Shown here in pieces: positions 1,525-38,364 of a stretch of 64,000 bases of DNA. The stretch is taken from positions 365-64,364 of the forward strand of contig CAYORG010000013.1 in assembly GCA_964406315.1 (NCBI GenBank), written 5' to 3'. The notes under the pieces were generated by a model. That model was not told the DNA's origin. It ran no database searches and was given only the letters and a program-made list of their open reading frames with translations. The first letter of the stretch is position 1; every line of letters begins with the position of its first letter. The position numbers were made by a program, and so were the translations under genes. The stretch comes from an uncultured Bacteroidales bacterium (GTDB taxonomy: Bacteria; Bacteroidota; Bacteroidia; Bacteroidales; UBA10428).

Positions 1525-2136
1525 CTACTCTTCAATGTTGTAGATAATTCCCTCTAGCTTATTGCTAAGATTAATATTATCAATAATGATCTTTTCCGGT
1601 ACCTTTAATATTACAGGAGCAAAATTCAGTATACCCTTTATTCCTGAAGCAATAAGAAGGTTGCACACTTCCTGTGCAACCTGAAAAGGTACGGCGATTA
1701 TGGCCGTGGTAACATTGTCCTTTTTGATGATCTCTGTGACTTTCTCGGGAGGAAAAATAGGTATGCAATAACTTTTATTTTGTTTTGAAGGATCGATGTC
1801 GAAACCAGCCACAATGTGAAGGTTTTTTTTGATGAACCGTTCGTTGTATTGCGACAGGGCCCTGCCAATATTTCCCATGCCAAATATGATAATGTTCTTC
1901 CGTGATTCTCCAAAAATGTGGTTCAATGATATCAGGAGATTTTCAATGTTGTACCCTCCCCTTTTTTTCCCTTTTATACCATAGGCAGAAAAATCTTTTC
2001 GCACCTGCACTGCAGTTACCCCTGCCACTTCACCCAGATTATGAGAATAGATGGTACTCACACCCAGTTCTTTAAACCGTAAAAGACACAGTTTATATTG
2101 CAATAACCGTTTGATATCACTTCTGACTAAGGCCAT
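1525..2136 (-). CDS. rex: Redox-sensing transcriptional repressor Rex
   Basis: wHTH with S(H)NLGEVAGVTAVQVRKDFSAYG..G.RGGY; Rossmann GMGNIG; GFDIDP; GILNFAP. Confidence 0.95.
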   Translation of the reverse strand: MALVRSDIKRLLQYKLCLLRFKELGVSTIYSHNLGEVAGVTAVQVRKDFSAYGIKGKKRGGYNIENLLISLNHIFGESRKNIIIFGMGNIGRALSQYNERFIKKNLHIVAGFDIDPSKQNKSYCIPIFPPEKVTEIIKKDNVTTAIIAVPFQVAQEVCNLLIASGIKGILNFAPVILKVPEKIIIDNINLSNKLEGIIYNIEE

Positions 2137-2249
2137 TTATTGTTCATTTATAGTACATAATTAATATCCAAATAGAAAGAACCAAATATCATATATTATT
2201 CAATAGTAGGCAATTTAAACTAAATTCTTGATTCAATCTTACAAATTTA

Positions 2250-2267
2250 TTGTACTTTTTTTCACAA
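2250..2267. promoter_or_regulatory. Putative Rex operator
   Basis: TTGTACT-TTTT-TTCACAA versus the consensus TTGTGAA-N4-TTCACAA: right half perfect, left half 4/7. Lies in the rex/hdrA divergent intergenic region. A weaker candidate is at 2310-2327 (TTGTGAT-ATTT-GGTACAT). Confidence 0.55.
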
Positions 2268-2355
2268 AAAATTGATTTACTACGTGAAAAAACGTATTTT
2301 TATTTGTTGTTGTGATATTTGGTACATTATAACTTAATGTCAAACTTATCAAGAC

Positions 2356-4167
2356 ATGAGAAAAACACTTGCTACCGGTGTCTGCTTTTCTCACTCAGAC
2401 AGTAATCATTCTCACTCATTCGATTATCAGGAACTCTATGATTCTGTTGAAATTGTACCTGAAGTAACAAAAATCTGGAATTTCTCAGAAAATCCGGTCC
2501 CGAATCTGGAGTTTTTTATTGAAGAAATTAAAAAGTTCAATATTGACCGTATCATCATCGCAGGGTTCCGGCCAGGATATTTCAAACCATTTTTTGCCAA
2601 AGCACTTCAAAAAGCAGGGAAAGCTCCGGAAAATATTCTTTTAATGAATATTTTTCATGGAATCCCGGAAGGAGTACCTTATAATAAATGGGTGAAAGCA
2701 AAACTTCTATGTACCCTGTATGAGGTTCCCTTCGAGGCATCATTACTCGGCGAGCCCAATCCTGTGAATCCGGAAACCTTGATCATAGGTGGCGGAATTG
2801 CCGGAATTCAGGCCTCACTCGAGATTGCCAACAGTCATAACAAAGTGTATCTTGTCGAGAAAACAGGAACCATAGGGGGACATATGGCCATGTTTGACAA
2901 GACTTTTCCTACCCTCGATTGCGCGGCCTGTATCCTGACCCCTAAAATGGTTGAAGTAAATCAGCATCCGTTTATTGAACTCATTACTTATTCGGAAATA
3001 CGATCTGTTTCAGGGGTGGCAGGCAACTACACGGTTGAAATTCTGAAAAAAGCCCGGAGAGTAAATGTTAAAACCTGTATAGGTTGCGGAACCTGTGCTG
3101 AAAAATGTCCCTCATCAGTCAAAAGTGAATTTGACCAGGGAACAAGTCTGCGTAAAGCTATTTACATGCCCTTTCCCCAGGCTGTTCCAAACAAATACCT
3201 CATCGATGCCGACTCCTGCCGATATGTAAAAGACGGTAAATGCGGAACATGTGTAAAATTTTGTCCAGTAGAGAACTGTATCAATCTCGATGAGAAGGAT
3301 GAAGTAGTTGAGGTGACTGTCGGAAACATCATTGTTGCCACAGGCTTTAAACCTTTCGATGCCGGGCGAATGGAACAGTATGGTTATGGGAAGTATCCTA
3401 ATGTGGTAACCTCTCTCGAGTTGGAACGACTAGTAAATGCTTCCGGGCCAACAGGAGGCAACGTTGTGCTGCGTACACAAGATAAAAAAGGAAACTGGAT
3501 ATTCGATGCCGGCAGTCCCGAACCCAAGAGTATAGCGCTAATCCATTGTGTTGGAAGTCGCGATGAAAACTATAATAAGTATTGCTCTCGTGTATGCTGT
3601 ATGTACTCGCTTAAACTCGCTCACCTTATCGGGGAAAAATTGCCCGAAGCTGAAGTATTCGAATACTATATTGATATGCGTGCCTATGGAAAGGGTTACG
3701 AGGAGTTTTACAAGCGTATCGAAGAAGAAGGTGTGCACATTATCAGGGGGAAAACAGCAAAAATTGAAGAAAAAAACAATCACCTTTTACTGCGGACTGA
3801 AGATATTGAACATGGCCGGTTATTGGAACAATCGGTCGATATGGTTGTCCTGGCTGCAGGCCTTGAACCCGGGAACGACACAAAAAAAATCGCTTCAATG
3901 TTGGGAATATCCTGTTCCGATGATGGCTGGTTTCAAGAATCGGATGCAGTATGCAATACGAATATGACTCTGACCGGTGGAGTTCTGCTTGCCGGAACAT
4001 GTCAGGGACCAAAAGACATACCCGATTCAGTAGTGCAGGGTTCTGCTGCGGCATCGAGTGTGATTCAGAGTATTCATCGAAAAACTGTTCCTCAGAGTCT
4101 TAAGAGTATTCCCCCGGAAGATATCAAACGAAGAGCTGTGATACTATCACCCTTAAACGGAGATTAA
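2356..4167 (+). CDS. hdrA: HdrA/QmoA-B family FAD and Fe-S protein (HdrA'): degenerate N-terminal domain, inserted 2x[4Fe-4S] ferredoxin, no C-terminal ferredoxin
   Basis: IIGGGIAG FAD motif; KTFPTLDCAACIL; CIGCGTCAEKCP and C..GKCGTCVKFCP; TSLELER; HCVGSRD..YCSRVCCMYSLK; GTCQGPKDIPDSV. Confidence 0.9.
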   Translation: MRKTLATGVCFSHSDSNHSHSFDYQELYDSVEIVPEVTKIWNFSENPVPNLEFFIEEIKKFNIDRIIIAGFRPGYFKPFFAKALQKAGKAPENILLMNIFHGIPEGVPYNKWVKAKLLCTLYEVPFEASLLGEPNPVNPETLIIGGGIAGIQASLEIANSHNKVYLVEKTGTIGGHMAMFDKTFPTLDCAACILTPKMVEVNQHPFIELITYSEIRSVSGVAGNYTVEILKKARRVNVKTCIGCGTCAEKCPSSVKSEFDQGTSLRKAIYMPFPQAVPNKYLIDADSCRYVKDGKCGTCVKFCPVENCINLDEKDEVVEVTVGNIIVATGFKPFDAGRMEQYGYGKYPNVVTSLELERLVNASGPTGGNVVLRTQDKKGNWIFDAGSPEPKSIALIHCVGSRDENYNKYCSRVCCMYSLKLAHLIGEKLPEAEVFEYYIDMRAYGKGYEEFYKRIEEEGVHIIRGKTAKIEEKNNHLLLRTEDIEHGRLLEQSVDMVVLAAGLEPGNDTKKIASMLGISCSDDGWFQESDAVCNTNMTLTGGVLLAGTCQGPKDIPDSVVQGSAAASSVIQSIHRKTVPQSLKSIPPEDIKRRAVILSPLNGD

Positions 4168-4170
4168 AAC

Positions 4171-5262
4171 ATGAACCGTATCGACCCTGATTTCAAAGAA
4201 AAGCTTAAACCCTTTGGTATAGGCAACTGGAACGAATGTTACCATTGCGGAAATTGCACAGCAACATGTCCTCATACTGAAGAAGGATTTCTTTTTCCCC
4301 GTAAAGGAATAAGAAGTATTCAACTGGGACTTGCTGATAGTATACATAATAACGTTGATCCATGGCTCTGTTACTATTGTGGCGATTGCAGCGAAACATG
4401 TCCCCGAAATGCCAATCCGGGAGAATTGATGATGACATTGCGGCGATACCTGACCACAGTATACGACTGGACAGGTTTAGCACGTATCTTATATACCTCG
4501 TTTCCTGCACTTATCATAGCCTTTGTGCTGGTTGCTCTTTCAATAATCGGCGTTGGATTTCTTAAAAATTTCGATAGGATTGCCATAATGGAGTTCGGAC
4601 ATAAATTTGAGTTCTTTGCTATTCTTTCAGTTGCCGTTATCATATTGCTGCCTAATATTTTACGTATGCTATGGTTTACCCTGGTAAAAGAAAAAGTCAA
4701 AGCACCTTTTTTCTTTTACATAACCGGCTTTGTGGATTTGATAGTACATATGTTCACCCAGAAAAAAACGTTGAAATGTGAAGAAAACAAACTGCAATGG
4801 TTCGAGCATTTTATCCTTGTACTTGGCTACTTATTGTTACTGTTTACTACTGTCTTTCTCAACTGGTTTGGTACGGAGAACCTTTACATAGTAACCACCG
4901 GATATAGTGTCGGGGCTATTACCTTCGTTATTACCTTTCTTTTTATCATAAGGCGAATCAGAAAAAAAAGTGAGTTAAGCAAGTTTTCACATCCTTCCGA
5001 CTGGCTTTTTATTATATGGTTATTCCTCATGGGATTAACAGCTTTCCTTGTTCGCGTGTTTATTGATTTGAATATAATAGGCAATCATTTATGGCTGTAC
5101 CTGGTGCATCTGATAATACTTGCGCAATGGGCAGTTCTTATAGTACCTTTCGGTAAGTGGACACATTTTTTATATCGATCATTTGCTATTTACATAGCAA
5201 AAATTAAAAAAGAAAATCTGATTAAACATATTGATAAAGAGTTAGTTACTGTTACAACGTAA
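4171..5262 (+). CDS. QmoC-like membrane subunit (2x[4Fe-4S] domain plus cytochrome b-type transmembrane domain)
   Basis: CYHCGNCTATCP and CYYCGDCSETCP, followed by about 6 hydrophobic helices with His in WFEHFIL and PFGKWTHFLYR (QmoC/NarI-like heme b ligand positions). Confidence 0.8.
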   Translation: MNRIDPDFKEKLKPFGIGNWNECYHCGNCTATCPHTEEGFLFPRKGIRSIQLGLADSIHNNVDPWLCYYCGDCSETCPRNANPGELMMTLRRYLTTVYDWTGLARILYTSFPALIIAFVLVALSIIGVGFLKNFDRIAIMEFGHKFEFFAILSVAVIILLPNILRMLWFTLVKEKVKAPFFFYITGFVDLIVHMFTQKKTLKCEENKLQWFEHFILVLGYLLLLFTTVFLNWFGTENLYIVTTGYSVGAITFVITFLFIIRRIRKKSELSKFSHPSDWLFIIWLFLMGLTAFLVRVFIDLNIIGNHLWLYLVHLIILAQWAVLIVPFGKWTHFLYRSFAIYIAKIKKENLIKHIDKELVTVTT

Positions 5263-5275
5263 ATAATTTTTTACT

Positions 5276-7006
5276 ATGGAAGAAATAAGAACAGGTGTCT
5301 ATATCTGTTGGTGCGGTTCGAACATTGCAAAAATGATTGATGTTCAGAGAATCGCTTCAGAAGCGCAAAAATTACCAAATGTTGTAATGGCGCGCGATTA
5401 CAAATATATGTGCTCCGATCCGGGACAGGATAAACTTATCGGCGATATTAAAGAGTTTAAGCTCAACCGTATTGTTATAGCAGCCTGCTCACCTCGCATT
5501 CATGAACCTACATTCCGAAAAGCCCTTGAACAAGCCGGCTTAAATCCCTATTTATTTCAAATGGCCAACATTCGGGAACAGGATTCATGGGTTCATATCG
5601 ACAGGGAATATGCCACACTAAAAGCACTTTCACTAATAAAAGCAGCTGTTAGCCGCGTAGAGCATCACAAATCTCTTGATAAAAAATTTGTAGAAGTTAA
5701 TCCAGCCACTCTTGTCATTGGAGGAGGAATAACAGGCATATCAGCCGCATTGGAAATAGCCGGAGCAGGAAAAAAGGTTTATCTGGTTGAAAAAACGGAT
5801 GCACTTGGAGGAATTGCAGCTAAACTTGACCTTACCTTCCCTTATCTGGAAAGTGCTCGCCAAATGCTTAAACCCAGGATTAAACAGGTTCAGTTGCACA
5901 AGTTAATTGATATCTTTCTTAACGCTTCTATCGAAGAAATAACAGGGTACGTCGGTAATTTTACATCGAAAATTCGACTGAAGGGTTTGGAAAAAGAATT
6001 ACAATTTGGAAATATCATTGTGGCTACCGGACTGCAACCTTTTAATCCGGCTTCGATTCCTGAATATGGGTATGGTAAGCTGCCTGACATAGTAACTTCA
6101 TTACAACTGGAAGAAATGCTGATTCAGGGAAATGTGATTACCAGTAAGGGGAAAGAACCAAAAAATATTGTCATAATTCATTGTGTTGGCAGCCGAAGCG
6201 CAAAGTATCATCCTTACTGTTCCCGGACATGCTGCTCTACAGCGCTGAAATATGCCAATCAACTTCTCTCAGTTTTACCCGACTCGAATATTTATGAATT
6301 GTATGCCGATATGCGAACGTTTGGAAAAGGATGCGAAGAGTTCTATTCCGATTCATCGCACAGGAAAATACTATTTCTGATGTTCGACCAGGAGAATAAT
6401 CTTCCCAAAATCAGTAAAGCACCCGAAAAAGATACATCAGAAATGATTATATCTATGCATGAAAAACTCTCAGGCGAAGATATTGAAATACCTGCCGATT
6501 TGGTTATCCTGATGACGGGGATGAAAGCCCAGCCTGACGCCAAAGATATAGCAAGGCTCACAGGTGTAAGCTTATGTGGTAATGACTTCTATATTGAAAA
6601 ACATCCAAAGCTCGACCCGGTTGCTACAACCACTGATGGAGTTTATATTGTTGGGAATTGTCAGAGCCCAAAAGATATTACTGAGAGTATTGCACAGGCA
6701 AAAGCAGCAACAGCCCGCGTGCTGGCGAGTATTGCTGTTGGCAATATGGAAGTTGAAGTCACCACCGCTCATGTAAATGAGGATGTATGCTGTGGATGCC
6801 AGACCTGTATTATGGTATGTCCCTATACGGCTATTCATTTTGATGAAGAGAAAAAAGTTTCGGTTGTAAATGAGGCTCTTTGCAAAGGTTGCGGTACATG
6901 TGGATCGACCTGTCCGACAGGTGCCATCGAAAGTCGCCATTTTACCGACATACAAATATTATCGCAAATCGAAGGTTTACTTAAAACTGAAAAAGAATCT
7001 ATCTAA
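5276..7006 (+). CDS. hdrA: Second HdrA-family protein (HdrA''): canonical Cys-bearing N-terminus and C-terminal 2x[4Fe-4S], no inserted ferredoxin
   Basis: [31 protein letters not shown]; VIGGGITG; [18 protein letters not shown]; [12 protein letters not shown] and [12 protein letters not shown]. Confidence 0.9.
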
Positions 7007-7011
7007 ATAGC

Positions 7012-7443
7012 ATGAATATGGCATTTGAACCCACAATCGTATCTTTTCTCTGCAACTGGTGTTCCTACACAGGGGCTGACCTGGCTGGAACTTCACGTAT
7101 TCCGTATGCACCCAACCTGCGTACCATTCGCATCATGTGTTCAGGTCGAATTGAACCCACATTTGTCTTAAAGGCATTTCGCGAAGGTGCTGATGGAGTG
7201 CTTATGTGTGGCTGTCATCCGGGAGATTGTCATTACCAGGAAGGCAACTATAAGTGCCTGAGGAGGTATTTCCTCTTACAAAAATACCTTCAGCAGATGG
7301 GTATAAGAAAAGAGCGGTTACGGTTGGAATGGATAAGTGCCAGCGAAGGGAAACAGTTTGCTGCCCTGGCTAATGATTTTACCGAAGCCATAAGGCAGCT
7401 TGGACCCTGCAAGGTAAAAACCGTGATGGATACACTAACCTGA
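7012..7443 (+). CDS. mvhD: Hydrogenase iron-sulfur subunit MvhD ([2Fe-2S])
   Basis: [36 protein letters not shown]. Confidence 0.95.
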
Positions 7444-7536
7444 TTTCGATTTAATGAAGTAAAATAAATAGTAATTCATAGGAGTAAAAATGCATAAGGC
7501 AGATGTAACTGAAATTTAAACCCTGGAGAAAAGATT

Positions 7537-8526
7537 ATGTCAAAAGAAAACAAAGAAAAACCCAAGCTTAAACTGGCAATATACTGGGGCGCTGCATGTG
7601 GTGGTTGCTGTGTATCGGTGCTCGATGTACATGAAAAATTATTTGATGTTGTAGCAGCTGCCGATCTGGTTTTCTGGCCGATAGCTCTCGATACGAAATA
7701 CGCCGATGTGGAGGCTATGGAAGACGGTTTTATAGATGTTACACTATATAATGGAGCAGTAAGAAATAGTGAAAATGAGCATATTGCCAAATTGCTACGT
7801 CAGAAATCCAAGATTTTAGTAGCTTACGGTTCATGTGCTCATATGGGAGGTATTCCCGGTTTGGCCAATTTTCATAACAGGGAACAGATTTTCGATAGAG
7901 TGTATAACACCAGTGAGTCGACTGTCAATAAAGAAAAAACTTTACCTCAAACAAGTTTTAAAGTAAGTGAAGGAATACTTACCCTACCGGAATTTTATAA
8001 TGATGTACGTCCATTGGATCAGGTTGTCGATGTGGACTACTACCTGCCCGGTTGTCCACCGCAAACCGAACGTTTTGTAGATGTGTTCATGGCTATAGCC
8101 AAAGGTACTGAGCTACCCCCGAACGGAGCTGTTGTGGGTGCCCTTGAAAAAACACAATGCGATGAGTGCAAACGAATTAAAACAGACAATAAGCGTATCA
8201 GGGAATTCAAGCGTCCTACAGAAGTAATCGATGATGGCGAAACCTGCTTTCTGGAACAGGGACTGATCTGTATGGGACCGGCAACACGCTGTGGTTGCGG
8301 TTATCGTTGCATTGAAGGAAATAGCCCCTGTCGCGGTTGTTACGGTCCTCCGTCAACATCACTTGATCCCGGAGCAAAAATGATGTCGGCTATTGCTACC
8401 ATGATCGATTCAAACGATCCGGCGGAAGTTGAAAAAATTATCGAGCAAATTGAAGATCCTGCAGGAACATTCTACCGTTTTAGTTTGCCAGGATCAATTC
8501 TTCGAAGAAAACTCATTGAAACATAA
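7537..8526 (+). CDS. mvhG: Group 3c [NiFe]-hydrogenase small subunit MvhG
   Basis: ACGGCCVS, YGSCA..GGIPG, LPGCPP, QCDEC, CFLEQGLICMGPATRCGC...C..GNSPCRGCYG. Confidence 0.9.
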   Translation: MSKENKEKPKLKLAIYWGAACGGCCVSVLDVHEKLFDVVAAADLVFWPIALDTKYADVEAMEDGFIDVTLYNGAVRNSENEHIAKLLRQKSKILVAYGSCAHMGGIPGLANFHNREQIFDRVYNTSESTVNKEKTLPQTSFKVSEGILTLPEFYNDVRPLDQVVDVDYYLPGCPPQTERFVDVFMAIAKGTELPPNGAVVGALEKTQCDECKRIKTDNKRIREFKRPTEVIDDGETCFLEQGLICMGPATRCGCGYRCIEGNSPCRGCYGPPSTSLDPGAKMMSAIATMIDSNDPAEVEKIIEQIEDPAGTFYRFSLPGSILRRKLIET

Positions 8527-8528
8527 AC

Positions 8529-9998
8529 GTGATGCAACAATATACCATCGATCCCATAACACGGCTTGAAGGACACGGCAAAATAGAAATATTCTGCAAT
8601 GACGATGGAGAGGTTGAGAATGTATATTTTCAGGTACCGGAGTTACGTGGTTTTGAAAAATTCTGTGAAGGCCGTCCTGTTGAAGAACTCTCCCAAATCG
8701 TTACAAAAATATGCGGCGTATGTCCGGGGTGTCACCATATGGCTTCTGGGAAAGCCGCCGATGCCGTCTATGGAACAGAGCCGACTCCTACGGCCAAAAA
8801 ATTACGCGAACTGTTCTACATGGCACACTTTATTCATAGTCATACAGCACATTTTTATGCTCTTGCAGCACCCGATTTTATCGTTGGTCCTACCGCGAAA
8901 AAGGAAGAAAGAAATATCCTGGGTGTAATAGCCAGAGTAGGAAAAGAAACAGGTACGGAAGTTATTAAACAACGGCGGCTGGCACAGGAAATTCAGGCAT
9001 TGCTCGGAGGACATCAGACCCATGTTGTAATGAACATACCCGGAGGTGTGAAGAAAGGATTGACGGCAGAACAGCGGGATGACATCGTGGAAAGAGCCAA
9101 AGGATTTATTGAATTTTCAAAATTCTCATTAAAGCTTTTTCATGATTTGGTTCTGGGCAACAAGGATTATGTAGATCTTATTCTTCATGGACCCTATTCT
9201 CTGAAAATCCATTCCATGGGGCTTGTAGATTCTAATAATAAGGTGAATTTCTACGATGGAAAAGTCAGGGTGGTCGATACGGAAGGCAAGGAATTATGCA
9301 AATATTCTCCCAATGAGTATATGAACTATGTGGCTGAAAGGGTTGAACCCTGGAGCTACCTGAAATTCCCATACCTGAAACAAAAAGGATGGAACGGATT
9401 CAATGAAGGTGCTGACTCGGGTGTTTATCATGCCACACCCCTCTCACGTCTTAATGCAGCAAATGGAATGGCCACTCCTCTTGCACAGAAAGAATATGAA
9501 GCAATGTACAATACCCTGGGTGGTAAACCTGTCCATTCAACCCTGGTTATGCACTGGGCTCGATTGATTGAATTGCTGTATGCTTCGGAGCATTGTCTGG
9601 AACTTATAGAAGATCCTGAAATCACTGGAAAAGAGTTACGGAACATGCCTGAAAAGGTAGTGGGTGAAGGTATTGGTATTGTGGAAGCACAGCGAGGTAC
9701 CCTGACACATCATTATTGGACAGACAAAAAAGGGATCGTTACCAGGGTGAATATTATTGTGGGTACCACAAACAACAATGCAGCCATATGCATGTCGCTG
9801 AAGAAAGCAGCTCAGAATATCATTAAAAAAGGAGTGGAAGTGACAGACGGTATTCTAAACATGATCGAAATGGCTTTCAGAGCCTATGATCCCTGCTTCT
9901 CCTGTGCAACTCATTCACTGCCCGGTGAGATGCCCCTGGTCGTAAACTTCAGAAATTCTAAGGGAGAAATCATCAGATCCGTAAAGAGAAAACCTTAA
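8529..9998 (+). CDS. mvhA: Group 3c [NiFe]-hydrogenase large subunit MvhA
   Basis: IDPITRLEGHG; L1 KICGVCPGCH; EAQRGTLTHHY; L2 AFRAYDPCFSCATH followed by a 27-residue cleavable tail. All four Ni ligands are Cys. GTG start at 8529 or ATG at 8532. Confidence 0.93.
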   Translation: MMQQYTIDPITRLEGHGKIEIFCNDDGEVENVYFQVPELRGFEKFCEGRPVEELSQIVTKICGVCPGCHHMASGKAADAVYGTEPTPTAKKLRELFYMAHFIHSHTAHFYALAAPDFIVGPTAKKEERNILGVIARVGKETGTEVIKQRRLAQEIQALLGGHQTHVVMNIPGGVKKGLTAEQRDDIVERAKGFIEFSKFSLKLFHDLVLGNKDYVDLILHGPYSLKIHSMGLVDSNNKVNFYDGKVRVVDTEGKELCKYSPNEYMNYVAERVEPWSYLKFPYLKQKGWNGFNEGADSGVYHATPLSRLNAANGMATPLAQKEYEAMYNTLGGKPVHSTLVMHWARLIELLYASEHCLELIEDPEITGKELRNMPEKVVGEGIGIVEAQRGTLTHHYWTDKKGIVTRVNIIVGTTNNNAAICMSLKKAAQNIIKKGVEVTDGILNMIEMAFRAYDPCFSCATHSLPGEMPLVVNFRNSKGEIIRSVKRKP

Positions 9999-10008
9999 AC
10001 TTTGATAT

Positions 10009-10527
10009 ATGAACCGAAATGGAAAAGCCCTCATTATGGGATTGGGAAACGAAATCCTGACTGATGACGGAATAGGAATTAAGCTGGTTCGCGATCTGGA
10101 GAAACGAGTTCACAAATCCTCTTTCGACTTTAAGAATGCCAGTTGTGGAGGATTGGAAATTATTGAGATGATGGAGGGATATAAATCCATGATCATGATC
10201 GATGCCATTAAAACTTCCGGTGGTATACCGGGAAAGATCTATCATTTCACACCCAGCCACTTCCGGCAATCGATGCATGTTTCCAATTTTCATGATATTT
10301 CCTTTATTACGGCTCTGAAATTCGGCAGGGAGTCCGGTCTTAAACTTCCTGATCAAATAAACATAATAGCCATTGAAATAGTTGAGGCCATGACGTTCAG
10401 CGACCGATTGTCTTCAGCCTTGGAAAAAAAGTATCCTGAACTATTGAAAAAAGTTCAGAAGCTCATGTTAAATATTCTTCTATCAGCAAAAATTGGAATG
10501 TTATCCAATGAATTTGTTTTAACTTGA
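10009..10527 (+). CDS. Hydrogenase maturation endopeptidase (HyaD/HybD family)
   Basis: GLGNEILTDDGIG, MIDAI, HD motif; directly follows mvhA. Confidence 0.9.
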   Translation: MNRNGKALIMGLGNEILTDDGIGIKLVRDLEKRVHKSSFDFKNASCGGLEIIEMMEGYKSMIMIDAIKTSGGIPGKIYHFTPSHFRQSMHVSNFHDISFITALKFGRESGLKLPDQINIIAIEIVEAMTFSDRLSSALEKKYPELLKKVQKLMLNILLSAKIGMLSNEFVLT

Positions 10528-10702: not shown

Positions 10703-11143
10703 ATGTATTCAGTTAAAGACATACTAGAAGAAAAAGGCTATAAAGTTTATTCCATAGAACCGGAAGCCACAGTATATGAGGCGCTGAAAAAAATGGCTGG
10801 GAAAAATATCGGGGCATTGCTGGTTATAAAAGACAACCAGGTTGTCGGAGTATTCTCAGAACGTGATTATGCCAGAAAAATTATCCTGAAAGGAAAATCT
10901 TCAAAAGAATCCATTGTCGGAGAGTTATTGTCTGAGAGAATATTCTATGTGAAACCAACAGCCACAACTGACGAATGCATGCAAATCATGACAGACCACA
11001 GAGTCAGACATCTGCCGGTTATGGATGAAAAAAAGGTCGTTGGTATTGTTTCTATTGGTGATATTGTGAATAAGATCATACAAGGCCATACCCATACAAT
11101 AAAGCAACTTGAAGATTACATACTGGGTAAAACTTTACCTTAA
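10703..11143 (+). CDS. CBS-pair domain protein
   Basis: TVYEALKKM..NIGALLV...GVFSERDYARK and M...RVRHLPV...GIVSIGD. Confidence 0.9.
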   Translation: MYSVKDILEEKGYKVYSIEPEATVYEALKKMAGKNIGALLVIKDNQVVGVFSERDYARKIILKGKSSKESIVGELLSERIFYVKPTATTDECMQIMTDHRVRHLPVMDEKKVVGIVSIGDIVNKIIQGHTHTIKQLEDYILGKTLP

Positions 11144-11177
11144 TTTATCTGTGCCTTTGTGAAATAAAAGGTAACTT

Positions 11178-11205
11178 AAAGTCCCTTGTGGGACTTTATT
11201 TTTTG
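11178..11205 (+). terminator. Rho-independent terminator
   Basis: AAAGTCCC-TTGT-GGGACTTT followed by a T-rich tract. Confidence 0.65.
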
Positions 11206-11207
11206 TT

Positions 11208-11810
11208 ATGAATGTATCCATCATACTCGCTCATCCTTCAAAGAACAGCTTCAATCACGCTATAGCCAGCGCTTGCATCAAAATCCTTAAAGAGCGGGGA
11301 CATATAGTGAAGTTGCATGATCTGTACAGGGAAGAATTTGATCCTATACTCAATGCCGAAGAAATACCCATGGATGGCAAAACGGATAAAGTAATTGATA
11401 CATACTGTAATGAAATCAGAAAATGTGAAGGAATCATTGTTATTCATCCGAACTGGTGGGGACAACCTCCTGCAATTCTTAAGGGGTGGATTGACCGTGT
11501 ATTCAGACCTGGAATAGCATATGAATTCAGGGATGGAGATAAAGGAGAAGGAGTCCCGGTTGGATTATTGAATGCAAAAGCAGCAATAGTTTTCAATACA
11601 TCGGATACCAGCAGAGAAAGAGAAGAAAATATTTTTCTCGATCCCCTGGAAACCATCTGGAAAAACTGTATTTTTTACTTATGTGGTATCAAGAATTTCT
11701 ATCGCAAGATGTTCAGAGTTATGGTTACAAGTACAGAAGAAGAAAGGATATTGTGGTTGAAGGAAGTAGAAGATATAATGATACGGTATTTCCCTATTGA
11801 CACTATTTAA
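11208..11810 (+). CDS. NAD(P)H-dependent oxidoreductase, flavodoxin-2 fold (KefF/MdaB-like)
   Basis: ILAHPSKNSFNHAI, HDLYREEFDP, HPNWWGQPPAILKGWIDRV. Confidence 0.88.
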   Translation: MNVSIILAHPSKNSFNHAIASACIKILKERGHIVKLHDLYREEFDPILNAEEIPMDGKTDKVIDTYCNEIRKCEGIIVIHPNWWGQPPAILKGWIDRVFRPGIAYEFRDGDKGEGVPVGLLNAKAAIVFNTSDTSREREENIFLDPLETIWKNCIFYLCGIKNFYRKMFRVMVTSTEEERILWLKEVEDIMIRYFPIDTI

Positions 11811-11866: not shown

Positions 11867-13159
11867 CTAAAAGAAATAGTATACACTCAGAAGAGTCCTG
11901 AGATTTGCTACTGTTGTTGTACTTGAAGGTATAGAATTCAAATCATAACTGTTTTCATCACCAAAGCTGGCTGCTGTATATTCAAACTCCAAAGCCAGTC
12001 TTACTTTATTAATATTGTATAGTATTCTCGGGGAAATCCGTATCAGTGATTCAATATCGTAACCGAAACCAAATTTCGTATTATCAGCATCCGACATTTT
12101 CTCTTTTGTTCCAAGGTTCTTCAGGTAGCCTCCAAAAATACCAAACTGGATTTTTTCTCCATGGGTATGTACTTCTGCCCAAAAGGTAATGTTTTTAAAC
12201 GCTGTATAGGTTCTTTCTCCGGTTACATCATCCGTTACTTCCTTTACTGCGAATCCACTGACAGAAAGAACATCGGATATATTTTCACCATAACGCGCCT
12301 GCAATTTAATGGTAACAGGTTTTAATTGTATTTTGGTAAATGCCATTGCAGTTATTCCGCCAAGCTTTTCATTTACTTTATAGGTATATGATAAGGTGTC
12401 ATTTACTTCGATCGTTGAAGACAATCGTGGAACAATCGTTTTGTATGCTACCCCGGCACCAATTAAAAAGCTTGTTCCGGCATCTTCGTTCTTGGTTTTA
12501 TAATGAAGTTGCAAATGCATATCAGGTATGTCAGAATTTCTCAGGTACTCTGATGAAGCAGCATTTTTGTCGTTCCAGGTTGAATAATCTCTTTGCGACA
12601 GGGCTGCAAGTATTATTCTAAAATCGCCGACATTCTGGGTAAGCCTGACTTGTGGATTCCGGGCAAAAGATTGCAGAGGAGTACCTGTATTGAAGGAAAC
12701 GGTACCCGGATAACAATCGGTGACAAACAGAGGATTCCAGTACTGACCGGCCATCAACTCTGTGGTTTTCCAATTGAGTTTAATAAACGCATGCCTCAAT
12801 CGAAAGAGATTGATATTTGCATTTGTCTGGGCAAAGAAATCACCTTCAACAAGTGCCGATGTTTTTGCACCAAAAGCATCAGGTCCGGCAATTTTTCCCG
12901 TCAATCTGGATTGAACGGCAAGAAAATTAAAATTTGGCTTTGCATTGATGTCATCGCCGTATTCATCCTGAACTTCGGCACTTGGCCAGAAAAGAAAGTG
13001 TCCTTCACGTGCCGCAGTTACCTGTCTTGTGTCAAAAAAAAAGTCACTTTTTACATATCCTGAAAAGGAAATGCCGAATTTCTTTTCTTCCTGTGTATCC
13101 TGACTAAAAACAAGTAAGGCAGGAGTTATCAGAAAAAATGCAATAAGTATTTTTTTCAT
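11867..13159 (-). CDS. DcaP-like outer-membrane porin
   Basis: Signal peptide from MKKILIAFF (ATG at 13159, preferred over the TTG at 13204); SGYVKSDFFFDTRQ, SRLTG, VEGDFF, FRLRHAFIKL; C-terminal YFF. Confidence 0.7.
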   Translation of the reverse strand: MKKILIAFFLITPALLVFSQDTQEEKKFGISFSGYVKSDFFFDTRQVTAAREGHFLFWPSAEVQDEYGDDINAKPNFNFLAVQSRLTGKIAGPDAFGAKTSALVEGDFFAQTNANINLFRLRHAFIKLNWKTTELMAGQYWNPLFVTDCYPGTVSFNTGTPLQSFARNPQVRLTQNVGDFRIILAALSQRDYSTWNDKNAASSEYLRNSDIPDMHLQLHYKTKNEDAGTSFLIGAGVAYKTIVPRLSSTIEVNDTLSYTYKVNEKLGGITAMAFTKIQLKPVTIKLQARYGENISDVLSVSGFAVKEVTDDVTGERTYTAFKNITFWAEVHTHGEKIQFGIFGGYLKNLGTKEKMSDADNTKFGFGYDIESLIRISPRILYNINKVRLALEFEYTAASFGDENSYDLNSIPSSTTTVANLRTLLSVYYFF

Positions 13160-13424
13160 ATTTTTTATATTTGAATTTATAGTATGAATTGTTGTTGATC
13201 CCAATTGTTTGTAACAGATTTAGAAAGAATATTTATATGCTGTTTGAGCTGATTTGAATTTTGATCTTAGAGACCACCTTTGGCAATATTGCTTATTGCA
13301 GAAGCAAAGACCGAAAAAAGAGACTAAATATAAAGTTTATATTTTATTTGAAAGAATTCAGGATTTAGTTTTTTAATCTTATTTTTAAACCAGGATTGTG
13401 AATAACACTTAACCATTTTCTACT

Positions 13425-23735: not shown

Positions 23736-24443
23736 TTGATCACCAAAAATAATCAACTTGAACTAATATTGGACAAAAGTTATTTCGCTGATAAAAGAAT
23801 TTTGACTATTATACGGGAAATGGTTACTTTCCATTTTCATATTTGTAGTATTAAAAAAGCCAGTAATTCCGGAAAACTGAAAACAACGAACTCAGAAATA
23901 GTAAACTGTCTTAAAAACGGTTATAATGATAAGATCTTGGAGCATCTGTATACCGGAGTATTCCCGAAAGTGAAAGCGTATGTCCTGTCGAATTCCGGTT
24001 CATGTGATGATGCAATAGACATTTTTCAGGATGCTGTTGTCATTCTTTGCAAACACATAAAATCAGGCAGGTATAACACAAACTATGAAATAGATGCTTT
24101 TTTATATAGTGTAAGCAGAAATTTATGGATCAATAAAGCAAAAAGGGATCTCCGGCAAACAGAGCTGCCTGAAAACTATGAAGAAAAGGAACCATATGAT
24201 TTTACTGATGACATCATTACCCATGAAAAAGAAAAAACCATTAAACAATTGATTCGTGAACTGGGGAAAAAATGTTATGAATTGCTTTCATATGCTCTCT
24301 ACCAGAATTTATCCGGAGAGGAAATTTGCAAAAAGATGGGGTTTGCCACGGTAAATGCCGTAAAAACACAAAAATACAAATGCAAACAAAAACTGATCAA
24401 GATGATTGAAACGAATCCTTCGTATAAAGAAGTCCTTGAATAA
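23736..24443 (+). CDS. ECF sigma-70 factor (true start probably later: ATG 23820 or CTG 23877)
   Basis: Region 2 DAIDIFQDAVVIL..., FLYSVSRNLW; region 4 LGKKCYELL...EEICKKMGFATVNAVKTQKYKCKQKL. Confidence 0.9.
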   Translation: MITKNNQLELILDKSYFADKRILTIIREMVTFHFHICSIKKASNSGKLKTTNSEIVNCLKNGYNDKILEHLYTGVFPKVKAYVLSNSGSCDDAIDIFQDAVVILCKHIKSGRYNTNYEIDAFLYSVSRNLWINKAKRDLRQTELPENYEEKEPYDFTDDIITHEKEKTIKQLIRELGKKCYELLSYALYQNLSGEEICKKMGFATVNAVKTQKYKCKQKLIKMIETNPSYKEVLE

Positions 24444-24444
24444 T

Positions 24445-25605
24445 ATGACAAAAGACATAGATAAATATGAACTCATAGAACGGTATCTGACAGGTCAATT
24501 GTCGGCTGAAAAATTAACTGACCTTGAGCGTCGTATAGAACGTGATCCTGATTTTGCGCGTGAAGTAGACAAGCACAGGGCAATTTCTTCGATCATTCGG
24601 GATGGAGTATTGCTGGAGATCAGGGAAAAAGTGAAAACAATACACAAAAGCAAAACATCCTATACCCTGTTCCGGAATTCAGGGAGAAGAATAATAACCC
24701 TGTCAGTTGCAGGTGTATTGATTTTCATGTCCATAATGTTCATAAGGAATATCAGAAAAGATCGTGATGGCAGGCTACCCGGAGAACAAGCACTTCCTGT
24801 AACAGATACTTCAATCAGGCAGAATCAGAGAACAGACAGTGTTCATAATGGATCATTTCAGATAAACAAGAAAAAAGCCGCACCAACTATGCATGAAAAT
24901 CTATATAAGAAACCATCAACGCCTGGTATTGAAAAGATATCCAATAAAGCCGATACAGCACAGGAAGAAAAAACAATCAATATCATACGAGCAAAAAAGA
25001 TGCAGGTTTCCGATTCAACAGTTGTAACTCCGGAACTTATGCCTGTTGCTGATGATAATGAATCGCATGCCGATCATGGAACAGATAGTATGGATTGCAG
25101 CCAGGTTGCGATCTTTGCCAGGGTAGAAACTGAAGAAAGTTGCGAACAAAGACCCACTGGCAGAATACGTATTGTGAAAACATCAATTCAGGGAGGGACA
25201 CCGCCGTATAGTGTGTCGATAGACAATGGCAAAAATTTCTATCCATCATTTGTATTTGAAAAATTATATCCAGGAAGTTATATGTTATGGTTGAAAGACA
25301 AATACAATTGCATGACAAAAACAGGAAATTACCGTATACCGTCTGTCGACTGCGACTTTGATTTTATCTTTGCGCCCGATGAAGGAGAACTATGGAAAGC
25401 ACCAAGTTATGGCGATGCAGGTTTTTTGAAAATCTATACCAAACAGGGTAAACTTGTATTTACAAACCGGATCGATTATGGTGAAATATATTTGTGGGAT
25501 GGCATGTCTTTAACGGATAATCCCCTGCCCATGGGAGTATATCGTTTCATCCTTGAACTTGATAACCACGATCCGGTAGTTGGTAATGTGACTATTGTAA
25601 GATAG
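24445..25605 (+). CDS. Anti-sigma-like single-pass membrane protein ending in a SprB-like repeat and a T9SS type-B CTD
   Basis: ATG 1 nt after the sigma stop. N-terminal ELIERYLTGQLS...DPDFAREV helices; TM ITLSVAGVLIFMSIMFI; charged linker; GGTPPYSVSIDNG repeat; LKIYTKQG...WDG...LPMGVY...NVTIVR. Confidence 0.7.
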   Translation: MTKDIDKYELIERYLTGQLSAEKLTDLERRIERDPDFAREVDKHRAISSIIRDGVLLEIREKVKTIHKSKTSYTLFRNSGRRIITLSVAGVLIFMSIMFIRNIRKDRDGRLPGEQALPVTDTSIRQNQRTDSVHNGSFQINKKKAAPTMHENLYKKPSTPGIEKISNKADTAQEEKTINIIRAKKMQVSDSTVVTPELMPVADDNESHADHGTDSMDCSQVAIFARVETEESCEQRPTGRIRIVKTSIQGGTPPYSVSIDNGKNFYPSFVFEKLYPGSYMLWLKDKYNCMTKTGNYRIPSVDCDFDFIFAPDEGELWKAPSYGDAGFLKIYTKQGKLVFTNRIDYGEIYLWDGMSLTDNPLPMGVYRFILELDNHDPVVGNVTIVR

Positions 25606-26975: not shown

Positions 26976-27707
26976 ATGAAATACTCATTGTCGTTTTTAT
27001 TGTTCGCAAGCCTCAGCATTCATGTTATATCTCAACCTGTCAGAGTCGTCCCTTACTATGAATGGTCAGATCCAATTGCTTTTCAGTTAAGTCGCAGTCC
27101 GTTAATTACCGGATACGGAGAATGCAGCGATTCACTGTCCCAGGTTTATGATGGAATGATCTTCTATGAATACAATGGCGCGTATTATGGAATTGAAAAC
27201 TGGGCAGATTACTATTACTGGTATACAAAAAAATACTGGTACTATTTCGATGAACCCGAATTGTATGAATTTTTCTATCTTACAGGAAATGATTATGGAA
27301 TGGCATCCTATATTGCAGGCAATTATTACAGATGCCATTACTACCCTTCATTGATCTCTTTACAATTCACAAATCGAAAACCTCAATACAACAGACTCAG
27401 AGATACAAAATACTGTGCTCAGAGTGCCAAAGAAATAAAACGATTGAATAAGGCCCTGGATAATGCGTTTGTAAAAAAGTTGAATTCGTCACAAAAAAAG
27501 GAATCATATTGTCAAAAATACAGGAATTATTCATACTCCTATAGCGGAACGCATACAACATGTGCATACAAAATTGCCGGCAAAACAGGTTATGCAGGGC
27601 AAAGAAACAGACAAGCACCTGTTAATTCCTCTGTAAACAGGATTTCATCCACTGTTCAGTCATCAGGAACAACAGAACTTGCACGAGTTGCAGAAACATT
27701 GAAATAA
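26976..27707 (+). CDS. Secreted Tyr-rich hypothetical protein
   Basis: 243-aa ORF with a signal peptide, a Tyr/Trp-rich central segment and a basic tail; no family recognised. Confidence 0.6.
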   Translation: MKYSLSFLLFASLSIHVISQPVRVVPYYEWSDPIAFQLSRSPLITGYGECSDSLSQVYDGMIFYEYNGAYYGIENWADYYYWYTKKYWYYFDEPELYEFFYLTGNDYGMASYIAGNYYRCHYYPSLISLQFTNRKPQYNRLRDTKYCAQSAKEIKRLNKALDNAFVKKLNSSQKKESYCQKYRNYSYSYSGTHTTCAYKIAGKTGYAGQRNRQAPVNSSVNRISSTVQSSGTTELARVAETLK

Positions 27708-27730: not shown

Positions 27731-28396
27731 TTATTCTTTTTTTGTAATTGTTCTGCCAAGCTTGTATGCCTGATCCATAAGCTCCCGGTTTTTATTAAGA
27801 TCTTCACTGGCAAGATAAGGCGGTAAATTCATTTTATCATAAAGTTCAATAAGTTCCTCTTTTGTTTTAATCAAGTGGTTTATAACAGCCAGCCTGGTTG
27901 CCGTAATAATATGCAATCTGTTTTCCTGACCCAGAACTGTTTTAAAGAAATTGAACAGGTCAATTATCGGAGCAGCTTCAAGTGCATTGGAAGAACCCAT
28001 GGTCAGAATTAAAACAAAATCTTTCTTCCACTTGTGCCAGGGTATATATTCGAGTTCAGATTCTGTGATCAAGACCTTTACAAAAGAACGGAACCGATCC
28101 AGCAGTCTTTTCATTGGAGCCGTAACATGATGAAAATAAATCGGGGTGGCAAATACCAGCACATCAGCATCAAGAATTTTTTCACTGAGCTGATTCCATT
28201 CATCATTATGTATAGTGCAGCGTCCGACAAGGTTGCAACGCAGACAACCACGACAATACTCAAGGTTTAATTCGTGAGCATATACGGATTCGATACGTCT
28301 TGTATTTGCTTTGGCACCATCCAAAAATCTCTTAAGCAAAAGTGCCGTATTCCCGCTTTTTCTGATGCTTCCGTTGAATGCCAGAACGTTTTTCAT
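27731..28396 (-). CDS. Flavodoxin family / iron-sulfur flavoprotein (Isf-like)
   Basis: NGSIRKSGNT FMN loop; CRGCLRCNLVGRC (Cx2Cx2Cx5C); ATPIYF...KRLLDR. Confidence 0.85.
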   Translation of the reverse strand: MKNVLAFNGSIRKSGNTALLLKRFLDGAKANTRRIESVYAHELNLEYCRGCLRCNLVGRCTIHNDEWNQLSEKILDADVLVFATPIYFHHVTAPMKRLLDRFRSFVKVLITESELEYIPWHKWKKDFVLILTMGSSNALEAAPIIDLFNFFKTVLGQENRLHIITATRLAVINHLIKTKEELIELYDKMNLPPYLASEDLNKNRELMDQAYKLGRTITKKE

Positions 28397-29093: not shown

Positions 29094-29639
29094 ATGATAG
29101 ATTTTGAAGCACTTTTTAAAGTTTCCTACGGATTGTACATAGTATGTTCCGGTGATAAAATCAAAGGGAATGGGTTTATTTCAAATTCAATCTTTCAGGT
29201 TACTGCTGAACCGCCACAATTTGCTGCATGCTGTAATAAAAATAATTATACAGCAGAATTCATTAAAAAACACCAGGCATTTTCAATTTCAGTATTAAGC
29301 CAGGAAACGCCTTCCGATATTATTGGAAGATTCGGATATAAAAGTGGCAGAGATACAAACAAGCTTAAAGGATTGGATATAAATTACGGAGAAACAGGTG
29401 TGCCTATCGTAATGAACGAATCTGTTGCCACAATGGAATGTAAGCTGGTCCAGACTTCTGACGTGGGAACCCACTTGATCTTTATTGGAGAGTTGATTCA
29501 GGCTGAAATCATTGATGAGAATAGGGACCCTCTGACTTATGCGTATTACAGGCAAATCAGAAAAGGCATAGCTCCCAAAAATGCTCCAACTTATGTTGAT
29601 AAATCCAAGCTATTAAAGAAGAAGGATTTCCTGAAATAG
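29094..29639 (+). CDS. Flavin reductase domain protein (N-terminal part of the high-molecular-weight rubredoxin type; no rubredoxin domain)
   Basis: ALFKVSYGLYIV, FQVTAEPP, CNKNNYT, FGYKSGRD..K, VGTHLIFIGE, LTYAYY...KG.APKNAPTY; no CxxC downstream. Confidence 0.85.
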   Translation: MIDFEALFKVSYGLYIVCSGDKIKGNGFISNSIFQVTAEPPQFAACCNKNNYTAEFIKKHQAFSISVLSQETPSDIIGRFGYKSGRDTNKLKGLDINYGETGVPIVMNESVATMECKLVQTSDVGTHLIFIGELIQAEIIDENRDPLTYAYYRQIRKGIAPKNAPTYVDKSKLLKKKDFLK

Positions 29640-38168: not shown

Positions 38169-38364
38169 GGTCAAATATAAGGAATATTAAGAAATCATTA
38201 ATTTTTATTAATAATCTACGTAAAGTATTCCATTTTGTTATTTAATTTAGGTATGATTTTTGTTTCTCAATAAAAAAACAATTAGTTTTGGTAACTTTTA
38301 ACGAAATCAACCGTATTTACTGAACAAATAACATAATTAAGAATTGATATTGCAATAAAGGAAG

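Follow-up and report, generated by a model that had tools for sequence, protein, structure and literature searches.

A Mvh-type [NiFe] hydrogenase encoded with Qmo-type flavoprotein and membrane subunits in a rex-adjacent operon of an uncultured Bacteroidales bacterium

Gene content of the locus

The subject of this work is a seven-gene operon found in a stretch of 64 kb (the window) from an uncultured Bacteroidales bacterium (assembly GCA_964406315.1, contig CAYORG010000013.1, positions 365 to 64,364), in which the genes of an Mvh-type [NiFe] hydrogenase follow those of two HdrA paralogs, here called HdrA' and HdrA'', and of a membrane subunit that resembles QmoC. The seven genes stand in one row on the plus strand, from hdrA' to a maturation endopeptidase gene, and they diverge from rex on the minus strand. 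The gaps between them measure 2-13 nucleotides (nt), with the exception of 93 nt ahead of mvhG. The positions given by the initial annotation for the interval 1525..10527 match the map of open reading frames (ORFs), and Pfam and NCBIfam agree with the names it had given to the genes:

1525..2136, minus strand: rex (NF003996, 193.7 bits, cut-off 138; PF06971 and PF02629)
2356..4167, plus strand: hdrA', HdrA paralog 1, QmoA-type, 603 amino acids (aa)
4171..5262, plus strand: QmoC-like iron-sulfur subunit with six transmembrane helices, 363 aa (NF038018)
5276..7006, plus strand: hdrA'', HdrA paralog 2, QmoB-type, 576 aa
7012..7443, plus strand: mvhD, [2Fe-2S] adaptor (PF02662, 182 bits)
7537..8526, plus strand: mvhG, [NiFe]-hydrogenase small subunit (VhuG best match, 227 bits)
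8529..9998, plus strand: mvhA, group-3c-like [NiFe] large subunit, GTG start (VhuA best match, 366 bits)
10009..10527, plus strand: hydrogenase maturation endopeptidase (TIGR00072, 91.2 bits, cut-off 47.45; PF01750)

The initial annotation had also pointed out that HdrB, aprAB and dsr genes are missing from the window, which is borne out by Pfam scans and by a CCG search of the 64 kb. Among 50 window ORFs the Pfam scans found no apr, dsr, sat, hyp or men gene. No HdrB or other CCG-domain protein is encoded in the 64 kb, where the sole CCG tripeptide in ORFs of at least 80 aa belongs to the C-terminal ferredoxin domain of HdrA'', and the Pfam lists of six related loci with called genes hold no CCG domain.

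Cofactor patterns of the subunits

Stretches holding relatives of the operon proteins are designated L001 to L099. Conservation of cofactor ligands was counted over 8-11 related loci, in which all cofactor cysteines and [NiFe] ligands of the operon are conserved.

At the level of the flavoproteins, both paralogs match HdrA models with 544 and 578 bits, scores that lie below the equivalog cut-offs. HdrA' aligns to residues 49-561 of the M. wolfeii HdrA (5odc_A, E 3.7e-135) and HdrA'' to residues 9-245 and 324-654 of HdrA 8rvu_a (E 4.5e-147). HdrA' contains an FAD/TrxR domain with a CxxC motif (Cys189/192) and a four-cysteine cluster, together with an inserted 2x[4Fe-4S] ferredoxin domain; in the same protein the N-terminal domain is devoid of cysteines and a ferredoxin domain at the C-terminus is missing. 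HdrA'' presents an N-terminal four-cysteine cluster domain, an FAD/TrxR domain with a four-cysteine cluster and a C-terminal 2x[4Fe-4S] ferredoxin domain, having lost the CxxC motif and, by a precise deletion, the inserted ferredoxin domain. The cysteines of each protein are conserved in 10/10 loci, and so is the GGGIxG plus C...C..CC motif that both of them carry. An alignment of 13 HdrA-like proteins, including those of L095 and L048, reveals the same split into an A-type and a B-type protein in the canonical QmoA and QmoB of the sat-aprBA-qmo cluster, and HdrA' is 37.6% identical over 450 aa to the apr-linked QmoA of L095. Judged by these patterns, HdrA' is of the QmoA type, and HdrA'' together with the free-standing MvhD is of the QmoB type.

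The functional meaning of these domains can be read from the M. wolfeii structure, in which MvhD feeds the C-terminal domain of HdrA, the TrxR cluster leads to HdrC, and the N-terminal cluster, which the other protomer completes with its Cys197, leads together with the inserted domain to ferredoxin (Chadwick et al. 2022, PMC9012536). The full set of HdrA branches (input, low-potential output and high-potential output) is complete only for HdrA' and HdrA'' taken together. Complementary tandem HdrAs have been interpreted as obligate heterodimers in the same study (Chadwick et al. 2022, PMC9012536), and if the complementary halves are read as a heterodimer, each HdrA'/HdrA'' pair would possess one complete path from input through bifurcation to output.

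Homologs of HdrA' with 61-63% identity and a response-regulator receiver domain are also known from other sequences (P0427, 751 aa; P0449, 738 aa; P0519, 1009 aa, the latter with a glycine-cleavage-H domain as well), and they hint that in some lineages a phosphorelay acts directly on the flavoprotein.

The membrane subunit begins with an HdrC-like 2x[4Fe-4S] domain (residues 1-95) containing eight invariant cysteines, which matches HdrC in the PDB with E 3.8e-17; no solved QmoC structure appears among the PDB matches, where HdrC alone matches the N-terminus. The C-terminal 270 aa form six transmembrane helices according to both hydropathy and an AlphaFold2 (AF2) model. The qmoC model NF038018 covers the protein end to end (3-358 of 360, 143 bits), and its full-length identity with the Desulfofundulus thermobenzoicus QmoC, encoded in the cluster sat-aprBA-qmoA-qmoB-hdrBC-like-qmoC, is 38%. 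These alignments identify the membrane subunit as a QmoC homolog, and the 38% identity to an apr-linked QmoC upholds the proposal of the initial annotation that a QmoC-type membrane subunit stands in the place of HdrB. Four histidines are candidate ligands of b hemes, namely H144, H213, H313 and H332; in 41 divergent relatives H213 is invariant, H313 is found in 39 and H332 in 40, and 25 of these 41 proteins match the NarI family PF02665. With the iron-sulfur domain in the cytoplasm, H213 and H332 would lie on the inner side of the membrane and H144 and H313 on the outer side, the layout expected for two stacked b hemes. From its sequence, the subunit is probably a di-heme, quinone-reactive cytochrome b.

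Other members of the QmoC-like family deviate in length or setting. P0276 (764 aa), P0130 and P0144 (771 aa) reach about twice the normal length, the first two coming from Desulfoplanes metagenome-assembled genomes (MAGs); the annotation of P0276, 'heterodisulfide reductase-related iron-sulfur binding cluster', suggests that QmoC is fused there to an HdrB-like part. In L091:1355-11340, a lone QmoC-like gene has a CxxCxxCC-family protein as its neighbour and faces a tandem of five TauE genes (sulfite-exporter family).

With respect to the hydrogenase, MvhA displays the metal-site motifs KICGVCPGCH and DPCFSCATH, after which comes a C-terminal extension of 26 aa for the protease, and its C62, C65, C456, C459 and H462 are conserved in 8/8 loci. 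Its closest solved relatives are MvhAs (5odc_F, E 1.6e-122, and 9sw2_F), with lower scores for enzymes of groups 3d and 1; the VhuA match of 366 bits is below the equivalog cut-off of 800. MvhG conserves 13 cysteines in 10/10 loci, and its N-terminus, MSKENKEKPKLKLAIYWGAACGGC, lacks a twin-arginine motif, so that no twin-arginine (Tat) export signal is present and the enzyme would be cytoplasmic. The seven cysteines of MvhD are conserved in 11/11 loci; in the gene calls of other assemblies mvhD starts 6 nt later, giving a protein of 141 aa. The large subunit thus has the nickel-iron ligands of group 3c, is closest to MvhA/VhuA and is accompanied by MvhG and MvhD, whereas the HdrB partner that belongs to this group was found neither in the window nor in the related loci with called genes. 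The endopeptidase gene occupies the same position in the operons of window type (class 1, see below) and in L088, L089 and L098. The initial annotation had cautioned that missing hyp genes would mean an inactive hydrogenase: none lies in the window, but in four class-1 relatives (L003, L008, L012 and L025) hypF, hypC and hypD are no more than 10 kb away from the operon.

It is because the QmoA/QmoB cofactor patterns coincide with full-length QmoC homology that the ensemble is interpreted here as a Qmo-type complex, the quinone-linked membrane complex known from sulfate reducers, with a hydrogenase attached.

Relatives, Rex sites and surroundings of the operon

The distribution of the operon was analyzed with one genome per species, by examining the loci of the best 80 of at least 579 genomes that hold a relative of the membrane subunit. 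These 80 species genomes all belong to Bacteroidota, except for one MAG labelled Chlorobiota. An operon of the window type (class 1) is present in 12 of them, all Bacteroidota MAGs, and rex is divergent from the operon in L001, L002, L003, L004, L005, L012 and L085-L087. The genomes behind L001, L002 and L003 are CAWGCR01, JAFGIP01 and JAGGXD01. No apr or sat gene was found in the parts of class-1 loci checked. The other 68 (class 2, within L009-L080) carry QmoC downstream of QmoA/QmoB-type genes, where the locus reaches far enough, and are qmoABC-type operons with neither a hydrogenase nor sat/apr. An example is provided by the cultured Ancylomarina longa (L048:4781-11056), with a crp gene adjoining two dsrE-like genes, mvhD, qmoA, qmoB, a 96-aa protein and qmoC. 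The DsrE-like genes of class-2 operons hint at a sulfur-carrier partner. In trees, the class-1 QmoCs group together next to class 2, and one MAG (AUK143) holds both classes (L003 and L009). No cultured carrier of a class-1 operon was found: the named relatives among the top 120 matches of QmoC and of HdrA', as well as the class-1 loci, are MAGs or unclassified 'Bacteroidota bacterium' entries.

The synteny survey also uncovered the set in rearranged form in Methylomirabilota-type MAGs. In L098/L099 the order is QmoB-like-MvhDGA-QmoA-like-97-aa protein-QmoC-HycI (L098:1253-9877) with hypFCDE downstream (L098:13264-17164); NCBI names this QmoC as a protein of a Candidatus Methylomirabilota MAG, and its relatives bear the names Methylomirabilis and Acidoferrum. 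L089/L090 have polyferredoxin-MvhDGA-HdrA-small-QmoC-HycI (L089:2416-9639), the polyferredoxin being found in the place of the B-type flavoprotein. Since the association recurs in different gene orders and lineages, Mvh and the QmoC-type subunit can be expected to work together. A small protein of 93-99 aa is encoded directly upstream of qmoC in class-2 and Methylomirabilota-type loci (L048:9724-10014, L089:7702-8001, L098:7711-8004, L097:1690-1971); it is 31-53% identical among L048, L089 and L098, has no Pfam match, and has no counterpart in the window.

Two further loci point to mobility of the membrane gene. L088 has crp followed by HdrA'-QmoC-HdrA''(split)-MvhDGA-HycI, and the gene order of L093 is identical to that of the window. 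The Mvh and HdrA subunits of both nest within the Bacteroidota clade, with MvhA, MvhD, HdrA'' and HdrA' 62-81% identical to those of the window, whereas their QmoCs (L088:3371-4444 and L093:4480-5640) are 38-40% identical and branch outside the whole Bacteroidota QmoC clade. The window was compared in full with L093 (MvhA 81%, MvhD 74%, HdrA'' 65%, HdrA' 62%, QmoC 38%) and with the class-1 locus L025 (81%, 72%, 64%, 60% and 57%, respectively). The trees are neighbour-joining without bootstrap and are relied on only where pairwise identities differ grossly. In one lineage, the membrane gene seems to have been replaced and the remaining operon kept, an event that argues for QmoC being a generic, replaceable membrane-coupling module.

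At the regulation level, the divergent rex gene draws attention to the hdrA' upstream region, where two candidate operators are located:

2250..2267, plus strand: Rex-box-like palindrome TTGTACTTTTTTTCACAA, about 95 nt upstream of hdrA', three mismatches to TTGTGAAnnnnTTCACAA
2310..2327, plus strand: TTGTGATATTTGGTACAT, a further candidate operator some 46 nt upstream of hdrA'

The -95 palindrome is conserved in L001, L002 and L085, and equivalent palindromes exist in L003, L004 and L005, the last of which carries the near-perfect GTGTGAAAAAGTTCACAT. A TTGTGA or ATGTGA followed by A/T occurs upstream of hdrA' in 8/8 rex-adjacent loci, the chance expectation being 0.18 per 300 nt. This motif is absent within 300 nt in L008, L025, L088 and L093, which have no adjacent rex, and L007 has one GTGTGAA; altogether, loci without adjacent rex show no Rex-like motifs within 300 nt except for a single half-site each in L007 and L025. 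Rex control of the operon is likely on these grounds. Rex repressors release DNA when NADH/NAD+ rises, and a Rex repressor acting on the operon would imply its induction at high NADH/NAD+, that is, under reductive stress.

Downstream of the endopeptidase gene two more features were recorded:

10703..11143, plus strand: gene of a CBS-pair protein (PF00571, two repeats)
11177..11198, plus strand: terminator-like hairpin with a T run, the first such plus-strand site past the operon

The CBS-pair gene may be the last gene of the transcription unit, although its membership is uncertain; it is kept downstream of the operon only in L001, L002 and L085, and its product could sense adenine nucleotides. 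The window total of terminator-like sites is no higher than the shuffled expectation, and a sigma-70 promoter scan found 36 sites against 28 expected with a model that was not built for Bacteroidota promoters.

The rest of the window has the content of a Bacteroidota chromosome, with type IX secretion cargo, PorP, GH43, alpha-amylase, pheT, purB and htpG. The type IX secretion genes and the names of the relatives are the reason for assigning the DNA to Bacteroidota, in agreement with the host suggested in the initial annotation. The possibility that the contig is chimeric, which the initial annotation had raised, was tested and excluded, because independent assemblies share the gene order: four independent contigs (JGI and SRA) show it, and 30 blocks of the assembly collection index a QmoC-like protein identical to that of the window. 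Samples of salt-marsh or sediment type (JGI 3300031365, 3300031554 and 3300031358) contain the contig. The flanks (rex, CBS and flavodoxin-like gene) are common to the window, L001 and L002. GC content is 0.41-0.44 over the operon and 0.35-0.38 in the flanks.

Three small flavin-dependent reductase genes are located within 20 kb of the operon, encoding a Flavodoxin_2/NAD(P)H oxidoreductase (11208-11810), FMN_red (27731-28396, minus strand) and Flavin_Reduct (29094-29639); the first also adjoins the operon in L001, and a Flavin_Reduct gene also follows HycI in L098. Elsewhere on the minus strand, the window encodes a bacterial WD40 beta-propeller protein (57169-58308), a 1181-aa CotH-kinase/lamin-tail protein with a type IX secretion sorting domain (34629-38174) and an ARPP-1 family protein (62445-63581). 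ORFs of 243-445 aa without a Pfam match at E<=1e-5 lie at 583-1410, 11867-13204 (minus strand), 24406-25605, 26976-27707 and 52199-53014, and further assemblies of this organism keep the first of them upstream of rex. The tRNA and Rfam scans of the window returned one tRNA-Ser and nothing else.

Proposed coupling, alternatives and known systems

From the gene set, the domain and ligand patterns, the homologies, the conservation and the synteny described above, we infer that the operon encodes one membrane-attached complex in which a cytoplasmic Mvh-type [NiFe] hydrogenase is built into a Qmo-type module, with flavin-based coupling of H2/H+ to menaquinone and ferredoxin, a proposal to which we assign a probability of roughly 0.58. 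Complex formation, hemes, reactivity with quinone and ferredoxin, bifurcation and direction are all predictions from sequence, and coupling of H2 to ferredoxin plus menaquinone in either direction would fit the anatomy. In the direction of H2 oxidation, H2 would be split at MvhA and the electrons would travel along the three MvhG clusters and the [2Fe-2S] centre of MvhD, entering at the C-terminal ferredoxin domain of HdrA'' to reach a bifurcating FAD. HdrA' and HdrA'' would act as an obligate heterodimer, in which Cys192 of HdrA', the equivalent of Cys197, completes the N-terminal cluster of HdrA'' and HdrA' supplies the only inserted ferredoxin domain of the pair. The low-potential branch would leave through this inserted domain towards free ferredoxin or flavodoxin, and the high-potential branch would run through a TrxR-domain cluster to the HdrC-like di-cluster domain of QmoC and from there to menaquinone (MK) by way of a pair of b hemes, the one near the cytoplasm bound by H213/H332 and the outer one by H144/H313. 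With Fd standing for ferredoxin, flavin-based electron bifurcation or confurcation would give the net reaction 2 H2 + MK + Fd(ox) <-> MKH2 + Fd(red) + 2 H+.

The potentials of the partners leave the direction finely balanced. The H+/H2 couple lies at -414 mV at 1 bar and at about -296 mV at 10 Pa, and ferredoxin at about -450 to -500 mV. Menaquinone has a standard value of about -75 mV (also in Ramos et al. 2012). From such standard values, the mean acceptor potential is about -270 to -290 mV, which equals that of the H2 couple at roughly 1-10 Pa; the reaction would be near equilibrium at the H2 levels of sediments and is therefore probably reversible. Because of the likely Rex control we lean slightly (about 55:45) towards H2 evolution from quinol and reduced ferredoxin, H2 uptake being nearly as likely. 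A bolder version, which we consider unlikely, is that the complex operates mainly in reverse, by Rex-derepressed confurcation of menaquinol and reduced ferredoxin that vents quinone-pool electrons as H2, and that the orphan MvhD of canonical QmoB is a vestigial hydrogenase dock. If this reverse operation were true, fermenters would have a route from the quinone pool to H2, and NADH oxidised by an ion-pumping Nqr or Nuo could end as H2, in a quinone-dependent chain that combines fermentation with respiration and has protons as its terminal acceptor. To our knowledge, such a chain has not been described.

Several observations weigh against the bifurcating Qmo-hydrogenase complex or parts of it. 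The 143 bits of the membrane subunit compare with a cut-off of 300 for NF038018, and PF02665 gives no match to the protein of the window even at E<=1. Foldseek matches to NarI are not significant (E 0.2-0.3, TM-score 0.2-0.4, probability 0.8-0.95), though they come first among the membrane-protein matches, and the AF2 model is of medium confidence (pLDDT 74); on account of these E values and this pLDDT, the fold evidence for a NarI-like cytochrome b was not used as proof. As for the heme ligands, H144 is positionally conserved only within the Bacteroidota clade, many other relatives carrying a histidine a few residues from that position, and the L088 QmoC (3371-4444) shows Phe at the position of H313 in the alignment. 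This Phe could reflect a misalignment or a variant with one heme fewer. The candidate Rex boxes carry 2-3 mismatches, the -46 motif could instead be a promoter element, and Rex control of an H2-uptake enzyme is not impossible either. Window-wide, the Rex consensus is not enriched (13 found, 9.3 expected), so that the argument for Rex is drawn from the conserved position of the sites in different loci. The window contains no menaquinone-biosynthesis, ferredoxin, fumarate-reductase or Rnf gene, and the partners are thus assumed. Canonical Qmo hands its electrons to AprAB with QmoA as the contact, and by this analogy an unlinked protein acceptor is possible.

The last analogy can be developed into an alternative in which the partner of the QmoA-type subunit is an unlinked protein or sulfur carrier (DsrC/TusE-like, a DsrE-bound persulfide or another reductase) onto which menaquinol and H2, the latter as low-potential co-donor, confurcate. 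Ramos et al. (2012) showed that QmoA contacts AprAB and proposed a hydrogenase as co-donor with QmoABC, the nearest QmoC relatives (class 2) are encoded in operons that open with two DsrE-like genes, and the MAG AUK143 has both systems. However, no sulfur-carrier, apr or dsr gene was found in the window or in the parts of class-1 loci checked (with operon-protein and three hyp queries), and HdrA', whose ferredoxin-exit domain is full, resembles the HdrA of methanogens (E 3.7e-135) far more than it does QmoA (37.6% identity), all of which makes an unlinked acceptor rather doubtful. Slightly more doubtful still is a non-bifurcating H2:menaquinone oxidoreductase, an uptake hydrogenase serving for example fumarate respiration, with the flavoproteins as wires and ferredoxin playing no part. 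Hydrogenase, MvhD and a quinone-type membrane subunit are all present, the transfer from H2 to menaquinone is strongly exergonic alone by established redox potentials, and the operon has no ferredoxin gene. It would nevertheless be costly for a wire to conserve strictly two complete FAD/TrxR modules and an inserted ferredoxin domain of eight cysteines, a domain that in HdrA is the ferredoxin exit (PMC9012536); reduction of quinone from a cytoplasmic H2 site can conserve energy only by saving the surplus in ferredoxin, and derepression by Rex at high NADH is a poor fit to an uptake-only enzyme.

The public annotation of the flavoproteins as 'CoB--CoM heterodisulfide reductase subunit A family' would favor another explanation, a methanogen-style MvhADG-HdrABC that reduces heterodisulfide or a DsrC trisulfide with an HdrB encoded elsewhere, the QmoC-like protein being a membrane-anchored HdrC as its N-terminal 95 aa might suggest. 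This is very improbable given that neither the 64 kb nor the six related loci with called genes have a CCG domain, and that the C-terminal 270 aa are a conserved domain of six transmembrane helices with invariant histidine, homologous to apr-linked QmoC and, in relatives, to NarI; Bacteroidota are, moreover, not known to us to make coenzyme M (CoM) or coenzyme B (CoB). An assembly artefact or a decaying operon, for which one could invoke the metagenomic nature of the contig and the slightly higher GC over the operon, has a negligible probability: the order recurs in independent JGI/SRA contigs, the ORFs are intact, the ligands are conserved in 8-11 species and the flanks are shared with L001 and L002.

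The bifurcating Qmo-hydrogenase complex, if correct, would change the reading of H2 metabolism in sediment, digester and soil metagenomes. Bacterial group 3c enzymes routinely receive the annotation 'MvhADG/HdrABC, bifurcates H2 to heterodisulfide and ferredoxin', though CoM-S-S-CoB is not known from bacteria, and the clusters of the FCB superphylum are usually labelled MvhADG/HdrABC or 'function unknown'; for a large number of Bacteroidota, and apparently for Methylomirabilota and Acidobacteriota too, the partner would be a Qmo-type quinone module instead. A Qmo that brings its own hydrogenase requires nothing beyond H2, quinone and ferredoxin and can do without APS reductase, which would make both the MvhD docking of QmoB and Qmo bifurcation accessible to assay. 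The importance of the case is limited by the fact that the idea is already published for Archaeoglobi, that the evidence comes from sequence and that no cultured carrier of the window-type operon was found. The statement of the initial annotation that the architecture is uncharacterised in Bacteroidota holds in the literature searched, where no paper describing a Qmo-Mvh link in this phylum was found; its novelty was overstated, as the same set and hypothesis had been published for Ca. Methanoglobus and a hydrogenase partner had been proposed by Ramos et al. (2012). Architecture and hypothesis are therefore not new as an idea (Archaeoglobi precedent, 2022-24), and the operon is of a known but biochemically uncharacterised kind. 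What this analysis adds is the assignment of the flavoproteins to the QmoA and QmoB types, the reasoning that they pair as a heterodimer, the wide occurrence in Bacteroidota and further phyla, the connection with Rex and the exchange of QmoC.

Compared with known systems, the operon shares with methanogen MvhADG-HdrABC (5ODC, 8RVU) the closest solved relatives of MvhA/G/D, the HdrA fold and clusters (E 1e-135 to 1e-147) and the HdrC-like domain, but it lacks the catalytic CCG protein HdrB, replaces the homodimeric HdrA by two complementary, half-equipped paralogs and has HdrC fused to a membrane domain. It resembles apr-linked QmoABC in the composition of QmoC (HdrC-like di-cluster plus six transmembrane helices), in the QmoA pattern of HdrA' and in the QmoB pattern of HdrA''. 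It differs from it in the absence of sat/aprBA, in that MvhD is a separate gene followed by MvhG and MvhA instead of the C-terminal domain of QmoB, in the order A-C-B, in the extra Cys-less N-terminal domain of HdrA' and in that its flavoproteins are closer to methanogen HdrA than to QmoA/QmoB. In QmoABC, a hydrogenase or ferredoxin had been proposed as third partner of QmoB via the MvhD domain (Ramos et al. 2012).

Closer at hand, the Bacteroidota class-2 operons contain the nearest QmoC relatives (53-61% identity), an A-type/B-type flavoprotein pair and a separate MvhD; unlike the window, they have no hydrogenase or protease, they carry DsrE-like genes and a small winged-helix-like protein, and their regulator is of the Crp type and not Rex. 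The Methylomirabilota/Acidobacteriota-type cluster of L098/L099 has the same six functional parts without HdrB (MvhA 59-60% and QmoC 36-38% identical to those of the window), but departs from it in gene order, in an extra small protein, in a B-type flavoprotein with a partly Cys-depleted inserted domain and in the lack of an adjacent rex. The nearest precedent for the hypothesis comes from Ca. Methanoglobus nevadensis, for whose cluster the authors speculate on electron movement between H2, ferredoxin and menaquinone, and the Mvh-Qmo-Hdr cluster of Ca. M. hypatiae is highly expressed, being transcribed at 995-2,431 reads per kilobase per million (RPKM) (Buessecker, Chadwick et al. 2022/2023, bioRxiv 10.1101/2022.12.01.518715; bioRxiv 10.1101/2023.09.08.556235). 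By its published description, the Ca. Methanoglobus (Archaeoglobi) system coincides with the operon in having Mvh, two HdrA homologs, one of them typed as QmoB, an HdrC-QmoC cytochrome-b fusion and no HdrB; the hosts differ, being archaeal, thermophilic and methanogenic there and Bacteroidota of mesophilic type, with the operon probably under Rex, here.

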